Of a stretch of 64,000 nt of DNA, positions 1,268 through 61,284 are shown one piece after another. Source of the stretch: an uncultured Eubacteriales bacterium (GTDB lineage Bacteria > Bacillota > Clostridia > Oscillospirales > Oscillospiraceae); contig CATEPI010000006.1 in the NCBI GenBank assembly GCA_949525845.1, positions 33,917 to 97,916 of the forward strand. The letters run 5' to 3'. The notes under the pieces are model-generated. The model had not been told where the DNA came from. It was given only the letters and a program-made list of their open reading frames with translations, and did not search any database. Position 1 is the first letter of the stretch. Each line of letters starts with the position of its first letter. A program made the position numbers and the translations under genes.

Positions 1268-2482
1268 ATGCCTGACCTGAAATTCCAGCCGCTGCTCTTC
1301 GGCGGCGATATCAACGTATACAGCGTGGCCCGGGCCTTCCACGAGGCCTACGGGGTGCGTTCCATCGCCTATGGCAAGTACCCATCCTTTCCCTGCCACG
1401 GCAGCGCCATCCTCGACTACCGGGTGTGCCCGGACAACGAGGACGAGGCCGCCTTCCGGCGTAACGTCCAGGCCGCGGCGGAGGAGTTCCCCCACAAGAA
1501 GATCATCCTGCTGGGCTGCGGGGACAGCTATGTCCAGCTGGCCGCCCACTGCAAGGACTCCCTGCCGGAAAATGTGATTGCCCCCTACATCGACGGCGGC
1601 CTGCTGGATACCCTCATCAACAAGGAGAAATTCTACCAGCTGTGCGACCAGCACGGCATCGACCACCCGGCCACCTTCATCTACGACAAATCCATGGGCC
1701 ACGACTTCTCCCTGCCTTGGGGCCCGCCCTACATCGCCAAGCCCGCCGACAGCGTGGCCTACTGGGCCTGCGGCGACCACTCCCTGGCCAAGGTATACAT
1801 CTGCCAGAGCTGGGAGGAGCTGCTGGAGAGCCTGGACCACGTCTACGCCGCCGGCTATCCGGACCACATGGTGCTCCAGGAGTTCATCCCCGGGGACGAC
1901 AGCTATATGCGGGTACTCACCAGCTACTCCGACCGGAACGCCCGGGTGACCACCATGTGCCTGGGCCATGTCCTGCTGGAGGAGCACTCCCCCCACGGCA
2001 TCGGCAACCACGCCGTCATTCTCACCGAGCGGGATGAGGAGCTGGAACAGAAAATCAAGGGGCTTCTGGAGTCCCTCCACTTTGTGGGCTTCTCCAATTT
2101 TGACATCAAATACGACCGCCGGGACGGCAAATACAAGGCCTTCGAGATCAACTGCCGCCAGGGCCGGAGCAACTACTACGTCACCGGCGCGGGGCATAAC
2201 ATCGCCCGGCTGGTGGTGGAGGACCGGGTAGAGGGGAAGGACCTCCCCTTCACCATGACGAAAAACCGCTCCCTGTGGCGGATGGTGCCCAAAAAGGTTG
2301 CGTTTAAATTCACCCCCAGGCAGTATCACGAGGAGATGCGGGCCCTTATCAAGGCGGGGGCGGATTCCCACTCCCTGGTGTATTCCAAAGACGCATCCCT
2401 GCGCCGCCGCCTACGGGTATGCAAAAACCACTTGGGCAACATCAAGCGGTTTGACCGGTACAATAAGGTACCGGAGGAGTAA
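1268..2482 (+). CDS. ATP-grasp carboxylate-amine ligase, D-aspartate ligase (Asl) family
   Basis: GGDINVYSVARAFHE, QEFIPGDD, FSNFDIKYD, FEINCRQGRS motifs; adjacent to an aspartate racemase. Confidence 0.85.
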   Translation: MPDLKFQPLLFGGDINVYSVARAFHEAYGVRSIAYGKYPSFPCHGSAILDYRVCPDNEDEAAFRRNVQAAAEEFPHKKIILLGCGDSYVQLAAHCKDSLPENVIAPYIDGGLLDTLINKEKFYQLCDQHGIDHPATFIYDKSMGHDFSLPWGPPYIAKPADSVAYWACGDHSLAKVYICQSWEELLESLDHVYAAGYPDHMVLQEFIPGDDSYMRVLTSYSDRNARVTTMCLGHVLLEEHSPHGIGNHAVILTERDEELEQKIKGLLESLHFVGFSNFDIKYDRRDGKYKAFEINCRQGRSNYYVTGAGHNIARLVVEDRVEGKDLPFTMTKNRSLWRMVPKKVAFKFTPRQYHEEMRALIKAGADSHSLVYSKDASLRRRLRVCKNHLGNIKRFDRYNKVPEE

Positions 2483-2502
2483 GTCTCTGACCGAACGCAC
2501 AC

Positions 2503-2633
2503 AAAAGCCCCCCTTGCCAAAGGGGGGAGGGCCGCGAAGCGGCGGGGGGATTCCGTCCACCGGCACGGCCCAGTTAAACGGAATCCCCCAGTCATTCGCT
2601 GCGCGAATGCCAGCCCCCTTTTGCAAGGGGGCC
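2503..2633. repeat. REP-like two-hairpin doublet (GGATTCCGT/ACGGAATCC ends)
   Basis: Inverted pair of units; the same two units occur in swapped order at 48613-48760. Confidence 0.8.
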
Positions 2634-2659
2634 ATCCACATCATCCAAAGGAGCATCCT

Positions 2660-3376
2660 ATGCAGTACCGTCTCGGCGTTCTTGGCGGCATGGGCCCCCA
2701 GGCCACCAACACCTTCTACCAATTTGTCATTGACCGCACCGCCGCCCGGTCTGACCAGGAGCACGTCAACGCCCTGATTCTCTCCGATGTGGACATGCCC
2801 GACCGCACCGCCGCCATCCTGGGCAGCGAGGAGGAGCGGGAGGCGGTGTACCGCCGCCTGCTGGCCGACGCCCGGCTGCTGGAAAACGCGGGGTGTACCT
2901 GCATCGCCGTCCCCTGCAACACCTCCCACTTCTTTCTGGACCGGGTGCAGGAGGGGGTCCGCGTTCCCATTCTCCACATGATTCGGGAGACCGCCCGGCT
3001 GCTGGCCGCCCGGGGGCTGCACCGGCCCGGCATCCTGGCCACCGACGGCACCATCCGGACCGGACTCTACCAAAAGGAATTTTCAGCCGCTGGAATACAG
3101 TCCGTTATCCCCACCCCTGAGGCTCAGGGGCTGGTAATGTCCCTTATCTACGACGACGTGAAGGCCGGCCGGGACGGCGACCCACAGAAGTTCGCCGCCA
3201 TCCACGAGGACCTGCTCTCCCAGGGCTGTGACTGCGGCGTGCTGGCCTGTACTGAGCTGTCGGTCTTCGCTGACCGGCACCACCTGCCCCCCTTCTACAC
3301 CGACGCCATGGCCGTCCTGGCCGAGCGGGCGGTGGAGGCCTGCCATAGGCCTCTGCGGCATATTTTTATCAAATAA
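2660..3376 (+). CDS. racD: Aspartate racemase (PLP-independent, two-Cys)
   Basis: GVLGGMGPQAT, PCNTSH and LACTELS motifs; RBS AAGGAG. Confidence 0.9.
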   Translation: MQYRLGVLGGMGPQATNTFYQFVIDRTAARSDQEHVNALILSDVDMPDRTAAILGSEEEREAVYRRLLADARLLENAGCTCIAVPCNTSHFFLDRVQEGVRVPILHMIRETARLLAARGLHRPGILATDGTIRTGLYQKEFSAAGIQSVIPTPEAQGLVMSLIYDDVKAGRDGDPQKFAAIHEDLLSQGCDCGVLACTELSVFADRHHLPPFYTDAMAVLAERAVEACHRPLRHIFIK

Positions 3377-6654: not shown

Positions 6655-6813
6655 GGGGTACAGGCAGAGCGCCTGTACCCCATGTTTATTTCGAAAAGCT
6701 TCCGAATGTAGGGCAAGGGCTCTGCCCTTGCCTGTCCTTACCCGCCCTGACCTCATTCCGATGCCGTTTTATCCCCTTCCGGGGATAGGCAGGGGTAGAA
6801 CCCCTGCCCTACA
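6655..6813. repeat. GTAG-type REP cluster
   Basis: gtagggcaagggctctgcccttgcc (6708) and inverted aggcaggggtagaacccctgccctac (to 6812), plus the hairpin ggggtacaggc/gcctgtacccc. Confidence 0.8.
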
Positions 6814-6874
6814 TGACGTACCGGCCGGTATTTTTGGAGGCTTTCTCCTTTATGAAAAGGAAATGCCCAGTAAT

Positions 6875-30629: not shown

Positions 30630-30866
30630 ATGAATACACTGAATTTAGTCCTTACCATCATTCAGGTCCTGTGCGGCCTGGCCGTTATCGCCGTGGTGAT
30701 GCTCCAGTCCGGCAAGAGCGCCGGCCTGTCCGGGGCCATCGCCGGCGGCGCTGACACCTTCCTGTCCAAGAACAAGGCCAAGAGCCTGGACGCCAAACTG
30801 GCCAAGATGACCAAGTGGGTAGCTATCCTCTGGATCGTCATTACCCTGGCCCTGAGCCTGATTTGA
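30630..30866 (+). CDS. secG: Preprotein translocase subunit SecG
   Basis: VVMLQSGKSAGLSGAIAGG; two TM helices. Confidence 0.93.
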   Translation: MNTLNLVLTIIQVLCGLAVIAVVMLQSGKSAGLSGAIAGGADTFLSKNKAKSLDAKLAKMTKWVAILWIVITLALSLI

Positions 30867-30882
30867 GCCCTGTCGCAATACC

Positions 30883-30917
30883 AAAGCACCTCACCGAAAA
30901 GGTGAGGTGCTTTCTTT
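30883..30917 (+). terminator. secG terminator
   Basis: aaagcacctcacc-gaaaa-ggtgaggtgcttt. Confidence 0.85.
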
Positions 30918-30999
30918 CTGCTTGCGAAATGGGTCGAAGCCTGATACAATAGCAATGCCGCCCTGCCCCTCCCTGTGCAAGGGAAGGAGGTGAAACCCT

Positions 31000-31095
31000 A
31001 TGGGAGACGCTCGAGAACTCTTACTAGCCGTCGCCGCAAATGTTATCGCATACTACATTTGCAAATGGTTTGATGGCCACAGCAAAGGGCGGTAA
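31000..31095 (+). CDS. Type I toxin, Fst/Ldr-like, 31 aa (not in ORF track)
   Basis: MGDARELLLAVAANVIAYYICKWFDGHSKGR; promoter TTGCGA-17-TACAAT (30922-30950); RBS GGAGG with an upstream anti-SD. Confidence 0.82.
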   Translation: MGDARELLLAVAANVIAYYICKWFDGHSKGR

Positions 31096-31099
31096 CCAT

Positions 31100-31181
31100 A
31101 GCGAAACCCCGGAGAGTCACACCTCTCCGGGGTTCTTTTTTTGGTGATACCCATGGGAGACGCTCATTTCTGCCTGGGTAC
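31100..31181 (-). ncRNA. Putative antisense antitoxin RNA 1 (par RNAII-like)
   Basis: Minus promoter TTGCAT-18-TATAAT (31217-31188); 31143-31165 repeats the toxin start region 30989-31012; shared hairpin aaccccggagag/ctctccggggtt. Confidence 0.75.
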
Positions 31182-31227
31182 AGATTGATTATAACACAGT
31201 TGCGCCGGGATATGCAAGAGAAAAGTT

Positions 31228-32676
31228 TTATTTCACCTCGTGGCTGTTCAGCAAAGACTGCTTGATATCCCACAGCTTCTGGGACAGGTCCACGTAGTAG
31301 TTGTGGGGGTTCTCGAAGCGTTTCACTTCGTCCCACAGGGCGTCCACCTGCCGCTGGCAGTAGGCCCGGCTGGTCTGGAGGTCGGGCACCTGATACACCA
31401 GCTCGCCCCCCCGGAAGATGGGCACCATCAGCTCCCGGGCCTCAATGTCGGTGTACACCTTCCGCTTCCAGGTAGCGTCCGGGTCGAAGAGCTCCAGGGG
31501 CTGGGAGAAGTCAAACTCCTCGTCGTGGAGGCAGATGAGATCGGCCTCCGCCTTGCCGGTGTCCTTGGAGAAGATGCGATAAATCTTCTTGAAGTGGGGG
31601 GTGGTGATTTTGGCGGCGTTCTCACTGATCTTGATTTTGGGAATGATGGTCCCGTCGTCCCCCTCGATGGCGGCCAGCTTGTAGACCCCGCCGAACACCG
31701 GCTCGCTGCGGGAGGTAATCAGCCGCTCGCCCACGCCGAAGGAGTCGATGCGGGCCCCCTGACGCACCAGGTCCCGGATGATGTACTCGTCCAGGGCGTT
31801 GGAGACCACGATCTTGCAGTCGGTGAATCCGGCCTCGTCCAGCATCTCCCGGGCCTTCTGGGAGAGGTAGGTGAGGTCGCCGGAGTCCAGGCGGATGCCG
31901 CATTTGGTGATGCCCTGGGGGACCAGGACCTCCCGGAAGGCCCGGATGGCGTTGGGCACGCCGGACTTCAGCACGTTGTAGGTGTCCACCAGCAGGGTGG
32001 CGTTGTTGGGGTAGAGCCGGCAGTAGGTCTTGAAGGCCGTAAGCTCGTCGGGGAACATCTGCACCCAGGAGTGGGCCATAGTGCCAGTGGCGGGGGAGCC
32101 GTACCGCTGGTCGGCCATGGTGCAGGCGGTGGCGGCGCAGCCGGCGATGTAGCTGGCCCGGGCCCCCAGCAGAGCGCCGTCCGCCCCCTGAGCCCGGCGG
32201 GAGCCAAACTCAGCCACCGGCCGGCCCTCGGCGGCCCGGACGATGCGGTTGGACTTGGTGGCGATGAGACTCTGGTGGTTCAGGGTGAGCAGGAGGAAAG
32301 TCTCCACAAACTGGGCCTGGATGGCCGGGGCCCGGACGGTGAGGATGGGCTCATTGGGGAAGACCGGGGTGCCCTCGGGGACGGCCCAGATGTCGCCGGT
32401 GAATTCGAAGCCCCGCAAGAAGGCCAGAAATTCCTCGCTGAAACAGCCCTTGGTACGCAGGTAGTCAACATCCTCCTGGTCAAAGCACAGCTCCTGGATG
32501 TACTCCACCACCTGGGCCAGGCCGGCGGCGATGGCAAAGCCCCCCTTGTCGGGGACGGAGCGGTAGAAGACGTCAAAATAGCAGATGCGGTCCTGCAAGC
32601 CGGTCTGGAAGTAGCCGTTGGCCATGGTCAGCTCGTAGAAGTCGCAGAGCATGGTCAGGTTGGTTTTCGCTTTCAT
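31228..32676 (-). CDS. pncB: Nicotinate phosphoribosyltransferase
   Basis: DFYELTMA, EFGSRRAQG, GTMAHSW, LLVDTY, GIRLDSGD, DSFGVG. Confidence 0.96.
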   Translation of the reverse strand: MKAKTNLTMLCDFYELTMANGYFQTGLQDRICYFDVFYRSVPDKGGFAIAAGLAQVVEYIQELCFDQEDVDYLRTKGCFSEEFLAFLRGFEFTGDIWAVPEGTPVFPNEPILTVRAPAIQAQFVETFLLLTLNHQSLIATKSNRIVRAAEGRPVAEFGSRRAQGADGALLGARASYIAGCAATACTMADQRYGSPATGTMAHSWVQMFPDELTAFKTYCRLYPNNATLLVDTYNVLKSGVPNAIRAFREVLVPQGITKCGIRLDSGDLTYLSQKAREMLDEAGFTDCKIVVSNALDEYIIRDLVRQGARIDSFGVGERLITSRSEPVFGGVYKLAAIEGDDGTIIPKIKISENAAKITTPHFKKIYRIFSKDTGKAEADLICLHDEEFDFSQPLELFDPDATWKRKVYTDIEARELMVPIFRGGELVYQVPDLQTSRAYCQRQVDALWDEVKRFENPHNYYVDLSQKLWDIKQSLLNSHEVK

Positions 32677-32696
32677 AGGGAAAGCCTCCTTGTGTC

Positions 32697-32714
32697 GGGG
32701 TGACAAGACACCCC
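32697..32714. promoter_or_regulatory. Palindromic operator at the pncB transcription start (possible NiaR site)
   Basis: GGGGTGAC-AA-GACACCCC about 12 nt downstream of a minus-strand TATAAT (32726-32731). Confidence 0.45.
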
Positions 32715-32918
32715 CATTTGACCCTATTATACTCCCTCCGGCCAAAAATGCAAGGAAAAGTGCAATTTTCTAAAAACAGGTGCGCCAGAGTCATCCCGCA
32801 GCTTTTTATGCAGGGGCGGACACTCCCTCCGCATCTGCCACCCTTGCATCATTTGCCGAATTTTGCTATAATATGGGCGGTTGCCTTTCCACCCTGGCAA
32901 CAGGGAGGAGGTGAAGAT

Positions 32919-33011
32919 ATGAACACGTTGGTAGACTATATTGTGGCTGTCATAGCAAGTGTGGTTGGTCATTACATCTGCAAGTGGTTTGACCGTCACA
33001 ACAAAAGGTAA
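32919..33011 (+). CDS. Type I toxin, Fst/Ldr-like, 30 aa
   Basis: MNTLVDYIVAVIASVVGHYICKWFDRHNKR; promoter TTGCAT-17-TATAAT (32844-32872). Confidence 0.82.
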   Translation: MNTLVDYIVAVIASVVGHYICKWFDRHNKR

Positions 33012-33019
33012 CCGAGCAT

Positions 33020-33102
33020 AAACCGAACCCCTGGGAGAGATAGCAGCTCTCCCAGGGGTTCAATTTTTGGTGAAGACAACAATGTTGGTAGACTTGTTGG
33101 TC
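33020..33102 (-). ncRNA. Putative antisense antitoxin RNA 2
   Basis: Minus promoter TTGCAA-18-TATAAT (33138-33109); 33069-33094 repeats 32910-32937; shared hairpin aacccctgggagag/ctctcccaggggtt. Confidence 0.75.
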
Positions 33103-33146
33103 GAGGTCATTATATCACAAGCGATCCTATCTTTGCAAGAGTAATT

Positions 33147-33338
33147 TTATATTTTTTCCTTCCCGCCGCCGGGGAACAGCTGAAAAATCTTTCCCACGTT
33201 GGGCGGGTCGCCTCCTGCAGCCACCCAGCCGGCGGCAAAGGCCCGGCGAGCCATGGAAAACAGGTAATTTTCCGCCTCGTCATACTCAGGTGCTTCTAAA
33301 AACTGTGAAAAGGCATCTTCAAAGTCGTTGGAAAACAT
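33147..33338 (-). CDS. Small acidic hypothetical protein
   Basis: 63 aa, RBS GGGGGTGG; divergent from an RHH gene. Confidence 0.65.
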   Translation of the reverse strand: MFSNDFEDAFSQFLEAPEYDEAENYLFSMARRAFAAGWVAAGGDPPNVGKIFQLFPGGGKEKI

Positions 33339-33439: not shown

Positions 33440-33604
33440 ATGAAGCCTGTTAAAACATCGGTAAGCATAACCATTGACAATCCTGTCCTGGAACAGATAA
33501 AATATTTGGCCGAACTGGAGGACCGCTCCCTGTCCAGCTATATCAACCTGGTTCTCCGGGAGCACTTAAAGCAGCTGGAGCGGAAAAAGGCTGAAAACCG
33601 CTAA
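33440..33604 (+). CDS. Arc-like ribbon-helix-helix protein, 54 aa (not in ORF track)
   Basis: MKPVKTSVSITIDNPVLEQIKYLAELEDRSLSSYINLVLREHLKQLERKKAENR; RBS GGGAGG. Confidence 0.8.
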   Translation: MKPVKTSVSITIDNPVLEQIKYLAELEDRSLSSYINLVLREHLKQLERKKAENR

Positions 33605-33646: not shown

Positions 33647-33874
33647 TCACAAAGCCTTGACAGGGAACAGTACCTCACAGCGGGGTTTTAGAGAGAGGAT
33701 GGCCGGTGCAAATCCTCCGAAGCTGTGGCGGGAAGGCGCCCTGGAGCGCGGGGAGGAAATGCCCCGCCGGTCCCCGCCGTTACCGGGTTAGAGTGTCCCC
33801 CCAGGGGAAATTCAGGTGGAACCACGGACAGTTTTTGTTCGCCCTGAGCCGAAAGGCTCGGGGCGTTTTTGTTT
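33647..33874 (+). promoter_or_regulatory. Glycine T-box riboswitch
   Basis: Promoter TTGACA-17-TACAAT (33612-33640); AGAGA box, GGTGCAA, specifier GAA-GGC (33735-33737, Gly); T-box AGGTGGAACCACG (33813-33825); terminator 33840-33874. Confidence 0.88.
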
Positions 33875-37106: not shown

Positions 37107-37217
37107 GAATGTCTTCAAGGCAGGGTGAAATTCCCGATCGGCGGTAAAGTCCGCGAGCACACAGGTGCTGATTTGGTGAAAGTCCAAAACCGACAGTACA
37201 GTCTGGATTAAAGAAGG
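37107..37217 (+). promoter_or_regulatory. FMN riboswitch (RFN element)
   Basis: tcttcaaggcagggtgaaattcccgatcggcggtaaagtccgcgagc...gctgatttggtgaaagtccaaaaccgacagtacagtctggat..gaag; promoter TTGACA-17-TATAAT (37055-37083); terminator before the RBS. Confidence 0.92.
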
Positions 37218-37365
37218 TGTATTGAATTTGTCAGAACTGTTCTGACAGCATACACGTTTCCTGTCCGGCCAAGAAATGCTTTGTTGACATGTTCAATATA
37301 CCTCTTAATTACACCGAAAGGCATTGCGTTGCTTTTAGGTGTTAATTTTTTTGGAGGTAATTGAA

Positions 37366-48495: not shown

Positions 48496-48612
48496 ATATT
48501 GTAGCGTCTTTTAAGAAAAAAGGCAAGCCTATTCTTGCCTGCGGGAGTGTCTTAGCGCGTACTTTATCACAATCAGGAGAAAAGTTGCAAATGTGACACA
48601 CCTTGGCAAACA

Positions 48613-48760
48613 ACGGAATCCCCCGCCACCGGACTGCGTCCGGCGGCCCTCCCCCCTTTAGCAAGGGGGGCTTTTGGCGCTGGCTGGTCCGTTTCCGCTC
48701 CAAAGGCCCCCTTGCTAAAGGGGGCTGGCATTTGCGTAGCAAATGACTGGGGGATTCCGT
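48613..48760. repeat. REP-like two-hairpin doublet
   Basis: Same two units as 2503-2633 but arranged tail-to-tail. Confidence 0.8.
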
Positions 48761-61004: not shown

Positions 61005-61180
61005 ATTTTTTTAGTAACAGTAGTCTATAGGCGAAAAAAATGTGGAAACATAGCGCAAAGCCTTGCAGCACTAAGAAAAGCGTCTCAACAGGGGGTGTGG
61101 ACAGAGACGGAGGGTTTTCCACAGGGGCCAAACTGTCCACATTTCTCCACAGACAATCCACATTTTTTTGTGGAGAACTT
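61005..61180. other. Probable oriC (dnaA-dnaN intergenic region)
   Basis: Seven DnaA-box-like 9-mers (61041, 61096, 61115, 61133, 61143, 61154, 61169) next to TAG-TAA-CAG-TAG trio-like repeats (61012-61023) and a T-run. Confidence 0.8.
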
Positions 61181-61182
61181 GT

Positions 61183-61261
61183 GTAGGGCAAGGGCTCTGC
61201 CCTTGCCTTTCTTACAAGGGTTAAAGACCTGTTCCAGGCAAGGGCAGAGCCCTTGCCCTAC
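61183..61261. repeat. GTAG-type REP doublet abutting oriC
   Basis: gtagggcaagggctctgcccttgcc / ggcaagggcagagcccttgccctac. Confidence 0.85.
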
Positions 61262-61284
61262 ATTACGAAAGCGGCGGAAATGCC

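Follow-up and report, generated by a model that had tools for sequence, protein, structure and literature searches.

Two cassettes predicted to encode par-like type I toxin–antitoxin pairs flank pncB in an uncultured Oscillospiraceae bacterium

Introduction

What are the two homologous ~300-bp cassettes that stand on either side of pncB in an uncultured bacterium of the Oscillospiraceae, and does their placement around a gene of nicotinamide adenine dinucleotide (NAD) salvage serve a function? The cassettes lie in the same orientation at 30922–31217 and 32844–33138 of the window, by which we mean the whole 64,000-nucleotide (nt) stretch analysed here (assembly GCA_949525845.1, contig CATEPI010000006.1, positions 33,917 to 97,916 of the forward strand). 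A first-pass annotation made from the sequence had described them as two Fst-like type I toxin–antitoxin (TA) loci and had offered several readings of their position around pncB. We regard it as likely that they are two independent, mutually orthogonal type I TA cassettes of the par design (Fst RNA I / RNA II). The definition of a par-type locus followed here, and the precedent for read-through at parEF0409 discussed below, are taken from PMC7472228.

Results

Cassettes 1 and 2 align with a mean column identity of 76%, their longest identical runs being ~10 nt, and a six-frame scan of the 64-kb window finds peptides of the YICKWFD kind at these two places only. The order of elements is the same in both. 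A sigma-70-like promoter with a TGn extended −10 is followed by a ~40-nt leader, in which a C-rich anti-Shine–Dalgarno (anti-SD) segment lies opposite GGAGG, by an open reading frame (ORF) of 31 or 30 amino acids that ends in YICKWFD and a short charged tail, and by a G+C-rich hairpin with a T-run. Immediately 3′ of the T-run stands a direct-repeat copy of the 3′ end of the SD, the start codon and the first codons of the cassette's own toxin, and each cassette closes with a convergent minus-strand TGnTATAAT promoter that has its −35, TTGCAT or TTGCAA, at 18 nt. All elements that had been described for two same-orientation loci of identical architecture were found, and the copy of its own toxin's start region ascribed to each antisense RNA stands out clearly from shuffled sequence (z = 9.3 at locus 1, 7.2 at locus 2). 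Promoter-like sites number 7 against 1.3 expected; in both loci the convergent promoters have −35 and −10 matches on each strand with a TGn extended −10, which is support at the level of consensus. Rfam gave no match at either locus at gathering thresholds, and terminator-like noise alone at E ≤ 10. The sole gene between the cassettes is pncB (31228–32676, minus strand), as previously proposed, and secG lies to the left of cassette 1. The 482-amino-acid pncB product is a nicotinate phosphoribosyltransferase, with NAPRTase_N and NAPRTase_C domains and a match to NF006695 at 700.8 bits against a cut-off of 469 (E = 8e-211). A leader-peptide or attenuator reading of the small ORFs was considered and rejected, because each has a promoter and a terminator of its own and is followed by a convergent promoter.

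In cassette 1, the plus-strand toxin promoter (30922–30950; TTGCGA at 30922–30927, a 17-nt spacer and TGaTACAAT, with the −10 at 30945–30950) would give an RNA I-like messenger RNA (mRNA) of ~186 nt (30957–31142). Its leader contains the anti-SD CCCCTCCCT (30966–30974), which pairs with the SD region at 30981–30991 (GGAGG at 30986–30990), ahead of the 31-amino-acid toxin-1 ORF MGDARELLLAVAANVIAYYICKWFDGHSKGR (31000–31095). The hairpin at 31105–31134 and the T7 run after it make up a bidirectional terminator (31105–31142; 12-bp stem, 6-nt loop) with a weak U-tract on the minus strand, and this terminator is common to the toxin-1 mRNA, antitoxin 1 and pncB. Next to it, the repeat GGTGATACCCATGGGAGACGCTC (31143–31165), a copy of 30989–31012, forms on the minus strand the anti-start-region segment of antitoxin 1, an RNA II-like small RNA (sRNA) of ~84 nt predicted at 31098–31181 (minus strand) from promoter position, terminator and fold. 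The antitoxin-1 promoter occupies 31188–31217 on the minus strand (TTGCAT at 31217–31212, an 18-nt spacer and TGTTATAAT at 31196–31188). Directly left of the cassette, the secG terminator hairpin (30883–30913, plus strand; 13-bp stem) could also halt minus-strand read-through.

Cassette 2 repeats this layout, with a plus-strand toxin promoter at 32844–32872 (TTGCAT at 32844–32849, a 17-nt spacer and TGcTATAAT, with the −10 at 32867–32872), a predicted plus-strand mRNA of ~191 nt (32879–33069), the anti-SD CCACCCTG (32889–32896, plus strand) and the 30-amino-acid toxin-2 ORF MNTLVDYIVAVIASVVGHYICKWFDRHNKR (32919–33011, plus strand). Its bidirectional terminator (33025–33069) has a 15-bp stem and a 7-nt loop in a hairpin at 33025–33061. 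The repeat (33069–33094, minus strand) copies 32910–32937 in perfect 8- and 11-nt blocks around an internal loop at AUG, and belongs to an antitoxin-2 sRNA of ~88 nt predicted from promoter and terminator at 33015–33102 on the minus strand; the antitoxin-2 promoter lies at 33109–33138 on the same strand (TTGCAA at 33138–33133, an 18-nt spacer and TGATATAAT at 33117–33109).

When the toxin mRNAs are folded from their predicted starts to their T-runs (minimum free energy, MFE), the SD is paired with the anti-SD in both, and the 5′ end is paired with the region of the stop codon: GCCGCCCT (30957–30964) with AGGGCGGT (31086–31093) at locus 1, and GGTTGCCTT (32879–32887) with AAGGTAACC (33005–33013) at locus 2. 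Each predicted minus-strand RNA is made up of the common terminator and, 5′ of it, a segment that can pair with the toxin start; this complementarity, which covers the SD, start and first codons of the toxin, arises because the RNA would be transcribed backwards across the direct-repeat copy. In the repeat copies of both cassettes and of most family loci, the start codon is usually altered or displaced by an indel of 1–5 nt, so that the predicted toxin/antitoxin duplex has a bulge or internal loop at AUG while the flanking blocks are perfect.

Each repeat matches its own toxin only, and the two cassettes should therefore not cross-protect. Predicted duplex energies for the cognate pairs are −46.0 kcal/mol (toxin 1 with antitoxin 1; cofold gain −41 kcal/mol) and −40.6 kcal/mol (toxin 2 with antitoxin 2; cofold gain −46 kcal/mol), compared with −15.2 kcal/mol for toxin 1 with antitoxin 2 (cofold gain −2 kcal/mol) and −24.9 kcal/mol for toxin 2 with antitoxin 1 (cofold gain −4 kcal/mol). 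The non-cognate duplexes are no better than shuffled controls, which have means of about −23 and −19 kcal/mol, and orthogonality, together with the earlier expectation that cross-neutralisation is unlikely, is thus supported in silico.

The design extends far beyond the window. We traced the family by DNA-pattern scans with the exact YICKW[FL]D motif, an ascertainment that underestimates its true breadth and diversity. Across one genome per species, 56 loci encode YICKWFD-type peptides, in Oscillospiraceae, Lachnospiraceae, Streptococcus, Pseudolactococcus, Enterococcus and Negativicutes. A tblastn search of a plasmid collection found the family in 399 records (330 from Enterococcus, many of them conjugative), the remaining matches including small plasmids of Streptococcus suis, Waltera, Mediterraneibacter and Ligilactobacillus; small resistance-gene plasmids also carry it, among them one of Streptococcus suis that has a tet gene. 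The cassette architecture is identical in all three plasmid records inspected. On the conjugative E. faecium plasmid pEfm12493 (L059, 1501–1575), an unannotated member, MKYLFDFVFAILAEVAAHYICKWLDCKIAKKDSKPTR, has the complete cassette architecture and adjoins ssb and an AbiEii-family gene. At least 81 viral contigs in IMG/VR carry the family, and 70 of the 78 toxin ORFs with an SD among them have a significant start-region repeat. A two-sequence profile searched against 1.84 billion proteins matched 726 clusters at 50% identity (E ≤ 1e-3), many of the matched database proteins having spurious N-terminal extensions from gene callers. Exact look-ups returned no meaningful name for any family member looked up, and a full-text literature search for the peptide motif returned no paper. 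Two database 'proteins' (P0008 and P0010) are in fact pairs of family peptides fused in frame across a tandem pair of cassettes and, like the extensions, illustrate the trouble that gene callers have with these loci.

Conservation follows the functional elements of the predicted RNAs, as would be expected of the par/Fst RNA I–RNA II design recognised in the first-pass annotation, all architectural features of which are present and conserved with covariation in dozens of loci. Across 67 loci the start region is duplicated 50–100 nt past the stop codon, the repeat is usually followed within 4–22 nt by ATTATAnCA, and the two together are found in nearly all of these loci. An all-against-all comparison of 59 distinct loci showed that the best match to a start region was its own downstream repeat in 51, with a mean cognate score of 29.7 versus 14.4 for non-cognate pairs (99th percentile of the latter, 23). 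Tandem arrays of 2 to 6 cassettes with a spacing of ~330 bp (L016, L028, L029 and L048, the last at 1322–3100) have a distinct start-region/repeat pair in every copy. Repeat and toxin start thus co-evolve, also where copies stand next to each other in an array. The helix between the 5′ end and the stop codon covaries as well, in at least eight different sequence pairs, with compensatory versions that include GTTACCG/CGGTAAC, GCTGCG/CGCAGC, CCATGCG/CGCATGG and GTCTTC/GAAGAC. The leader stem and anti-SD/SD pairing are 69% paired over 51 leaders versus 42–55% with slid partners, and show clear double changes at two positions, the support from this hand-specified structure being moderate; RNAalifold gave no consensus structure from a MAFFT alignment of the same 51 leaders.

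AlphaFold2 models toxin 1 as a single helix (residues 3–28; predicted local distance difference test score, pLDDT, of 86). Throughout the family (53 of 53 members) an invariant W stands between the hydrophobic stretch and the tail, with D next and then a charged tail of 3–12 residues. The published signature of the Fst/Ldr superfamily, in which a conserved Trp separates the transmembrane helix from a charged C-terminus (PMC7472228), is thus present in the CKW[FL]D family. The positions W−13 (S in 35, A in 11, T in 3) and W−9 (S in 29, G in 12, N in 8) share register with the P and G of PxxxG in Fst, PepA1 and LdrD, and hhalign of the 53-member alignment against Fst, PepA1 and LdrD, a template of three sequences only, gave 73.8% probability (E = 2.9e-5) over 28 columns with the W aligned. 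The profile of C. difficile toxins, NF047374, matches 35 of the 53 members weakly (13–21 bits against a cut-off of 60; best E = 5.7e-5) and over the helix only (profile positions 1–29 of 51); neither window peptide matches it. Pfam DUF2158, which scored below its cut-off in 47 of the 53 members, was judged a short-motif coincidence and set aside.

Transcription of locus 1 can be followed in metatranscriptome X8, the only informative one among the RNA runs that hold the loci; most contigs from these runs are of low depth and could be DNA carry-over. X8 depth is 0 at 30860–30955 and jumps to 200–500 at 30963–30966, where there is an adapter junction. Coverage is unbroken across 31143–31230, and a single contig (30996–31411) spans the terminator, repeat, antitoxin promoter and pncB 3′ end. 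Transcription of locus 1 is therefore strong and begins near the predicted promoter, and read-through from one of the two sides must cover the gap at 31182–31227, the X8 contigs being unstranded.

The pncB stop codon (31228–31230) is only 10 nt from the antitoxin-1 −35, and no terminator-like site was found between them. At the equivalent secG–pncB spacer, relatives with an empty site have an ordinary bidirectional terminator; in two of them (L017 and L018) a 46–50-nt bidirectional terminator is the entire spacer, and window positions 30863–31225 are replaced as a block. As cassette 1 has taken the place of this terminator, pncB transcripts must cross the antitoxin-1 promoter and gene to reach the cassette hairpin, and the pncB 3′ untranslated region would carry the antitoxin-1 sequence. 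Along the minus strand, antitoxin 2 and its terminator come first, then the pncB promoter and pncB, and last antitoxin 1 with the second terminator. The earlier suggestion that the pncB transcript could run into antitoxin 1 is strengthened by the 10-nt gap, the missing terminator and the continuous X8 coverage. Elsewhere in the family, the antitoxin-side neighbour points the same way as the antitoxin in 22 of 31 cases, and at 12 of 45 loci an antitoxin-co-oriented ORF of at least 120 amino acids ends within 60 nt of the antitoxin −10, both counts resting on crude ORF calls.

Whether relatives have zero, one or two loci around pncB was put forward in the first-pass annotation as a check, and all three states were found. 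Both cassettes are present in the two relatives with pncB identical to that of the window (L001 and L002, 100%) and in one at 97.9% (L005). Cassette 1 alone occurs in L004 (99.2%), L007 (95.4%) and L006 (94.4%), and cassette 2 alone in L018 (98.5%) and L017 (94.8%). Seven independently chosen pncB orthologues (86–95% identity, 11 contigs) have no cassette within 1.5 kb, and among the 56 family loci genome-wide a location near pncB is confined to the closest relatives. In run X28, from one mouse-gut sample, an empty-site allele of the secG–pncB spacer was found together with contigs that have cassette 1; the two spacer forms therefore co-exist in a single mouse-gut sample.

The cassette borders have no target-site duplications or other mobility scars, and empty sites differ by replacement of the entire intergenic region. 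The left edge of cassette 2 (32822–32835) coincides with a breakpoint in L004, a junction also seen in metagenome contigs. In L018, an interspersed repeat of ~260 nt (L018 2654–2917) is inserted exactly at this edge (window junction 32821/32835); copies of the repeat occur in the window at 48605–48691, 2503–2557, 6697–6831 and 61179–61263. A cassette-less relative with pncB at 95% (L062) has, in its pncB terminator (2953–2995), the 10-bp stem CCCCGGAGAG/CTCTCCGGGG of the cassette-1 terminator, and may retain there a remnant of a lost cassette. Judged from these comparisons, the bracketing of pncB is recent, patchy and lineage-specific, occupies two intergenic regions and is no conserved functional unit. 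Nothing in the comparison with relatives suggests that the cassettes came to flank pncB by anything but a local accident, and a variable intergenic site, the insertion hotspot named as an alternative in the first-pass annotation, fits better than double addiction.

The predicted pncB promoter (32726–32753, minus strand; TTGCAT, a 16-nt spacer and TATAAT) is conserved in L062, L063 and L066. Between it and the SD of this minus-strand gene lies a perfect palindrome or hairpin, GGGGTGACAAGACACCCC (32697–32714), which is kept in the pncB leaders of the same three cassette-less relatives and is a candidate operator or regulatory hairpin, perhaps connected with the niacin repressor NiaR. To the right of cassette 2 are two divergent small ORFs (33147–33338, minus strand; 33440–33604, plus strand): one encodes a 63-amino-acid protein with no family match, the other a 54-amino-acid ribbon-helix-helix protein with weak CopG/MazE-antitoxin matches and no obvious toxin partner. 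A T-box leader (33648–33849, plus strand) lies between cassette 2 and a glycyl-tRNA synthetase gene, the latter seen at the equivalent locus L001, and a flavin mononucleotide (FMN) riboswitch occupies 37107–37222; both score above Rfam gathering thresholds.

Discussion

In the mechanism that we propose for each cassette, a constitutive promoter would produce a stable mRNA of ~190 nt for a single-helix membrane peptide of 30–31 amino acids. This mRNA would silence itself, its 5′ end being paired with the stop-codon region and its anti-SD with the SD. The convergent extended −10 promoter would produce an sRNA of ~85 nt ending at the bidirectional terminator common to both RNAs, and the sRNA would pair with the toxin translation initiation region and block translation. 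From this architecture we infer that the peptides are toxic and that the sRNAs exist and act as antitoxins.

Several observations weigh against this reading or against kinship with Fst. The RNA runs that hold the loci are unstranded assembled contigs, and the 5′ coverage boundary in X8 lies 6–9 nt downstream of the predicted toxin-1 start. The minus-strand U-tracts are weak in both terminators, whose plus-strand T-run is good, so that the 3′ ends of the predicted sRNAs are uncertain. A YUNR U-turn is absent from the terminator loops UCACAC and AUAGCAG and from their complements GUGUGA and CUGCUAU. Pfam PF13955 (Fst_toxin) recognises 0 of 53 members, PF13940 (Ldr_toxin) 1 of 53 at E = 0.15 and NCBIfam NF033608 (Fst) 1 of 53 at E = 3; in a search of the family profile against the PDB, the Fst, PepA1 and LdrD chains 2KV5, 4B19 and 5LBJ, the sequences of which were checked, were not retrieved. 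Both window peptides lack a P/D/S/T-xxx-G motif (they have A-VAA-N and A-VIA-S), and only a minority of the family fits P/D/S/T-xxx-G(C), PxxxG being essential for the toxicity of Fst (PMC7472228). The label 'Fst-like' given in the first-pass annotation thus holds for the design and the superfamily signature, and fails for membership by curated Fst hidden Markov models (HMMs). The CKW[FL]D family, probably if not demonstrably homologous to Fst/Ldr, is best placed in that superfamily as a divergent and so far unannotated branch with a predicted par-like mode of action. The missing PxxxG, and a family that is nameless in database look-ups and has a motif met in no paper by full-text search, could also be taken to mean that the ORFs encode harmless small membrane proteins whose expression an antisense RNA controls, or that the cassettes are functionless relics in decay. 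We consider this very improbable. ORFs, promoters, repeats and structures are intact and co-evolve across phyla-level distances, which argues for purifying selection; small cryptic plasmids, conjugative enterococcal plasmids and predicted phages often carry the family; arrays like that of L048, in which every tandem copy has a repeat of its own, are typical of addiction-type type I systems; and locus 1 is highly represented in the metatranscriptome.

If the cassettes are TA systems, the position of pncB between them could be a product of selection in two ways. Double addiction protecting an NAD-salvage gene, as the first-pass annotation had it, would mean that orthogonal cassettes were selected for guarding pncB jointly against deletion: a recombinant that had lost pncB by exchange between them would, for example, combine the toxin-1 start region with antitoxin 2 and die. 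Because the cassettes are homologous, in the same orientation and predicted to be orthogonal, a crossover from start region to repeat should indeed yield a mismatched pair, and a similar speculation exists for parEF0409 (PMC7472228). However, the arrangement is not conserved, since relatives have both cassettes, the left one only or the right one only and the seven other orthologues have none nearby, and the family as a whole is not associated with pncB. Identical runs of ~10 nt at most make recombination unlikely, and the risk exists only through the cassettes themselves; we find this account very improbable, slightly more so than a reading outside TA biology. Metabolic coupling, in which read-through from pncB is a selected input, so that NAD-salvage transcription sets the dosage of antitoxin 1, hence toxin-1 expression, and cassette 1 regulates growth by niacin or NAD status, has more in its favour. 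The short gap without a terminator, the ordinary bidirectional terminator of empty-site relatives, the continuous X8 coverage and the co-oriented neighbours elsewhere in the family all suit it, and the same feature has been noted for parEF0409 and mtlF (PMC7472228). Yet cassette 1 is missing from relatives with the same pncB (L018 at 98.5%, L062 and L063), and neighbour genes vary by locus, so that any coupling would be generic and not NAD-specific. Antitoxin sequence within a long mRNA may be inactive, and the orientation bias, itself drawn from crude neighbour calls, may only mirror a tolerance of insertions between convergent genes. Coupling as a selected function is, in our view, unlikely, and we infer any physiological effect of the read-through from the layout. 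A broader proposal, that the family is a very large unnamed par-type branch of type I TA systems (hundreds of 50%-identity clusters from gut Clostridia, lactic acid bacteria and Negativicutes, with hundreds of Enterococcus plasmid records and many predicted phages among its carriers) that habitually replaces the terminator of a co-oriented host gene and has its antitoxin fed by read-through, toxin-1 repression being tied here to pncB transcription, we put forward tentatively, as a possibility still on the doubtful side.

Two independent, orthogonal par-type cassettes beside pncB remain our preferred reading, and their family is of wider interest. Pfam, NCBIfam, Rfam and the source annotations all miss it, despite its occurrence on hundreds of Enterococcus plasmid records and on predicted phages of gut bacteria. 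Once recognised, it would help to annotate gut Firmicutes and functions of plasmid stability better, and would provide RNA-controlled kill switches that are orthogonal by nature. Its locus-specific pairs of repeat and toxin start are a ready covariation data set for the evolution of antisense specificity. With its read-through, the layout at pncB would add an independent second case to the one put forward for parEF0409, and could be used for testing whether host-gene transcription tunes antitoxin supply.

Among known systems, par of E. faecalis pAD1 (Fst) shares with the cassettes convergent promoters, a common bidirectional intrinsic terminator and start complementarity that comes from direct repeats transcribed in opposite directions (PMC7472228), along with an SD concealed in a 5′ stem-loop, an mRNA 5′ end tied up in a helix and a single-helix peptide of ~30 amino acids with a charged tail. 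It differs in having two repeats, DRa plus DRb, where the cassettes have one contiguous or bipartite repeat, and in the YUNR U-turn that starts the par kissing complex, which the window terminator loops lack; this motif is not found in all par homologues (PMC7472228). The predicted sRNA length of ~85 nt is a further difference, and, unlike Fst, the window family falls outside PF13955 and NF033608, with A/S-xxx-S/N/G in place of PxxxG and an invariant C-K-W-[FL]-D. Chromosomal parEF0409 is a par-type locus likewise wedged between metabolic genes, in its case two mannitol phosphotransferase system (PTS) operons, and there too no terminator separates mtlF from the antitoxin, so that mtlF read-through may add to RNA II; its repeats differ from those of par of pAD1, and for that reason the two loci do not cross-react (PMC7472228). 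However, parEF0409 is present in all E. faecalis strains, whereas the cassettes at pncB come and go, flank one gene as a pair and encode another peptide subfamily. SprA1/SprA1AS (PepA1), the staphylococcal and streptococcal Fst-like loci and enterobacterial Ldr share the Trp between helix and charged C-terminus, PepA1 and Ldr being comparable also in the P/G register, where the family has small or polar residues at W−13 and W−9; there is no HMM-level match to PepA1 or Ldr, and regulation of ldr/rdl is hok-like, not par-like. The C. difficile type I toxins (CD2517.1-RCd8 and others; NF047374) are also clostridial, with convergent transcripts and a hydrophobic N-terminal helix, but they are 34–53 amino acids long with Lys-rich tails, and their antitoxins overlap the mRNA by 131–283 nt with no displaced repeat (PMC5961336; PMC7699646).

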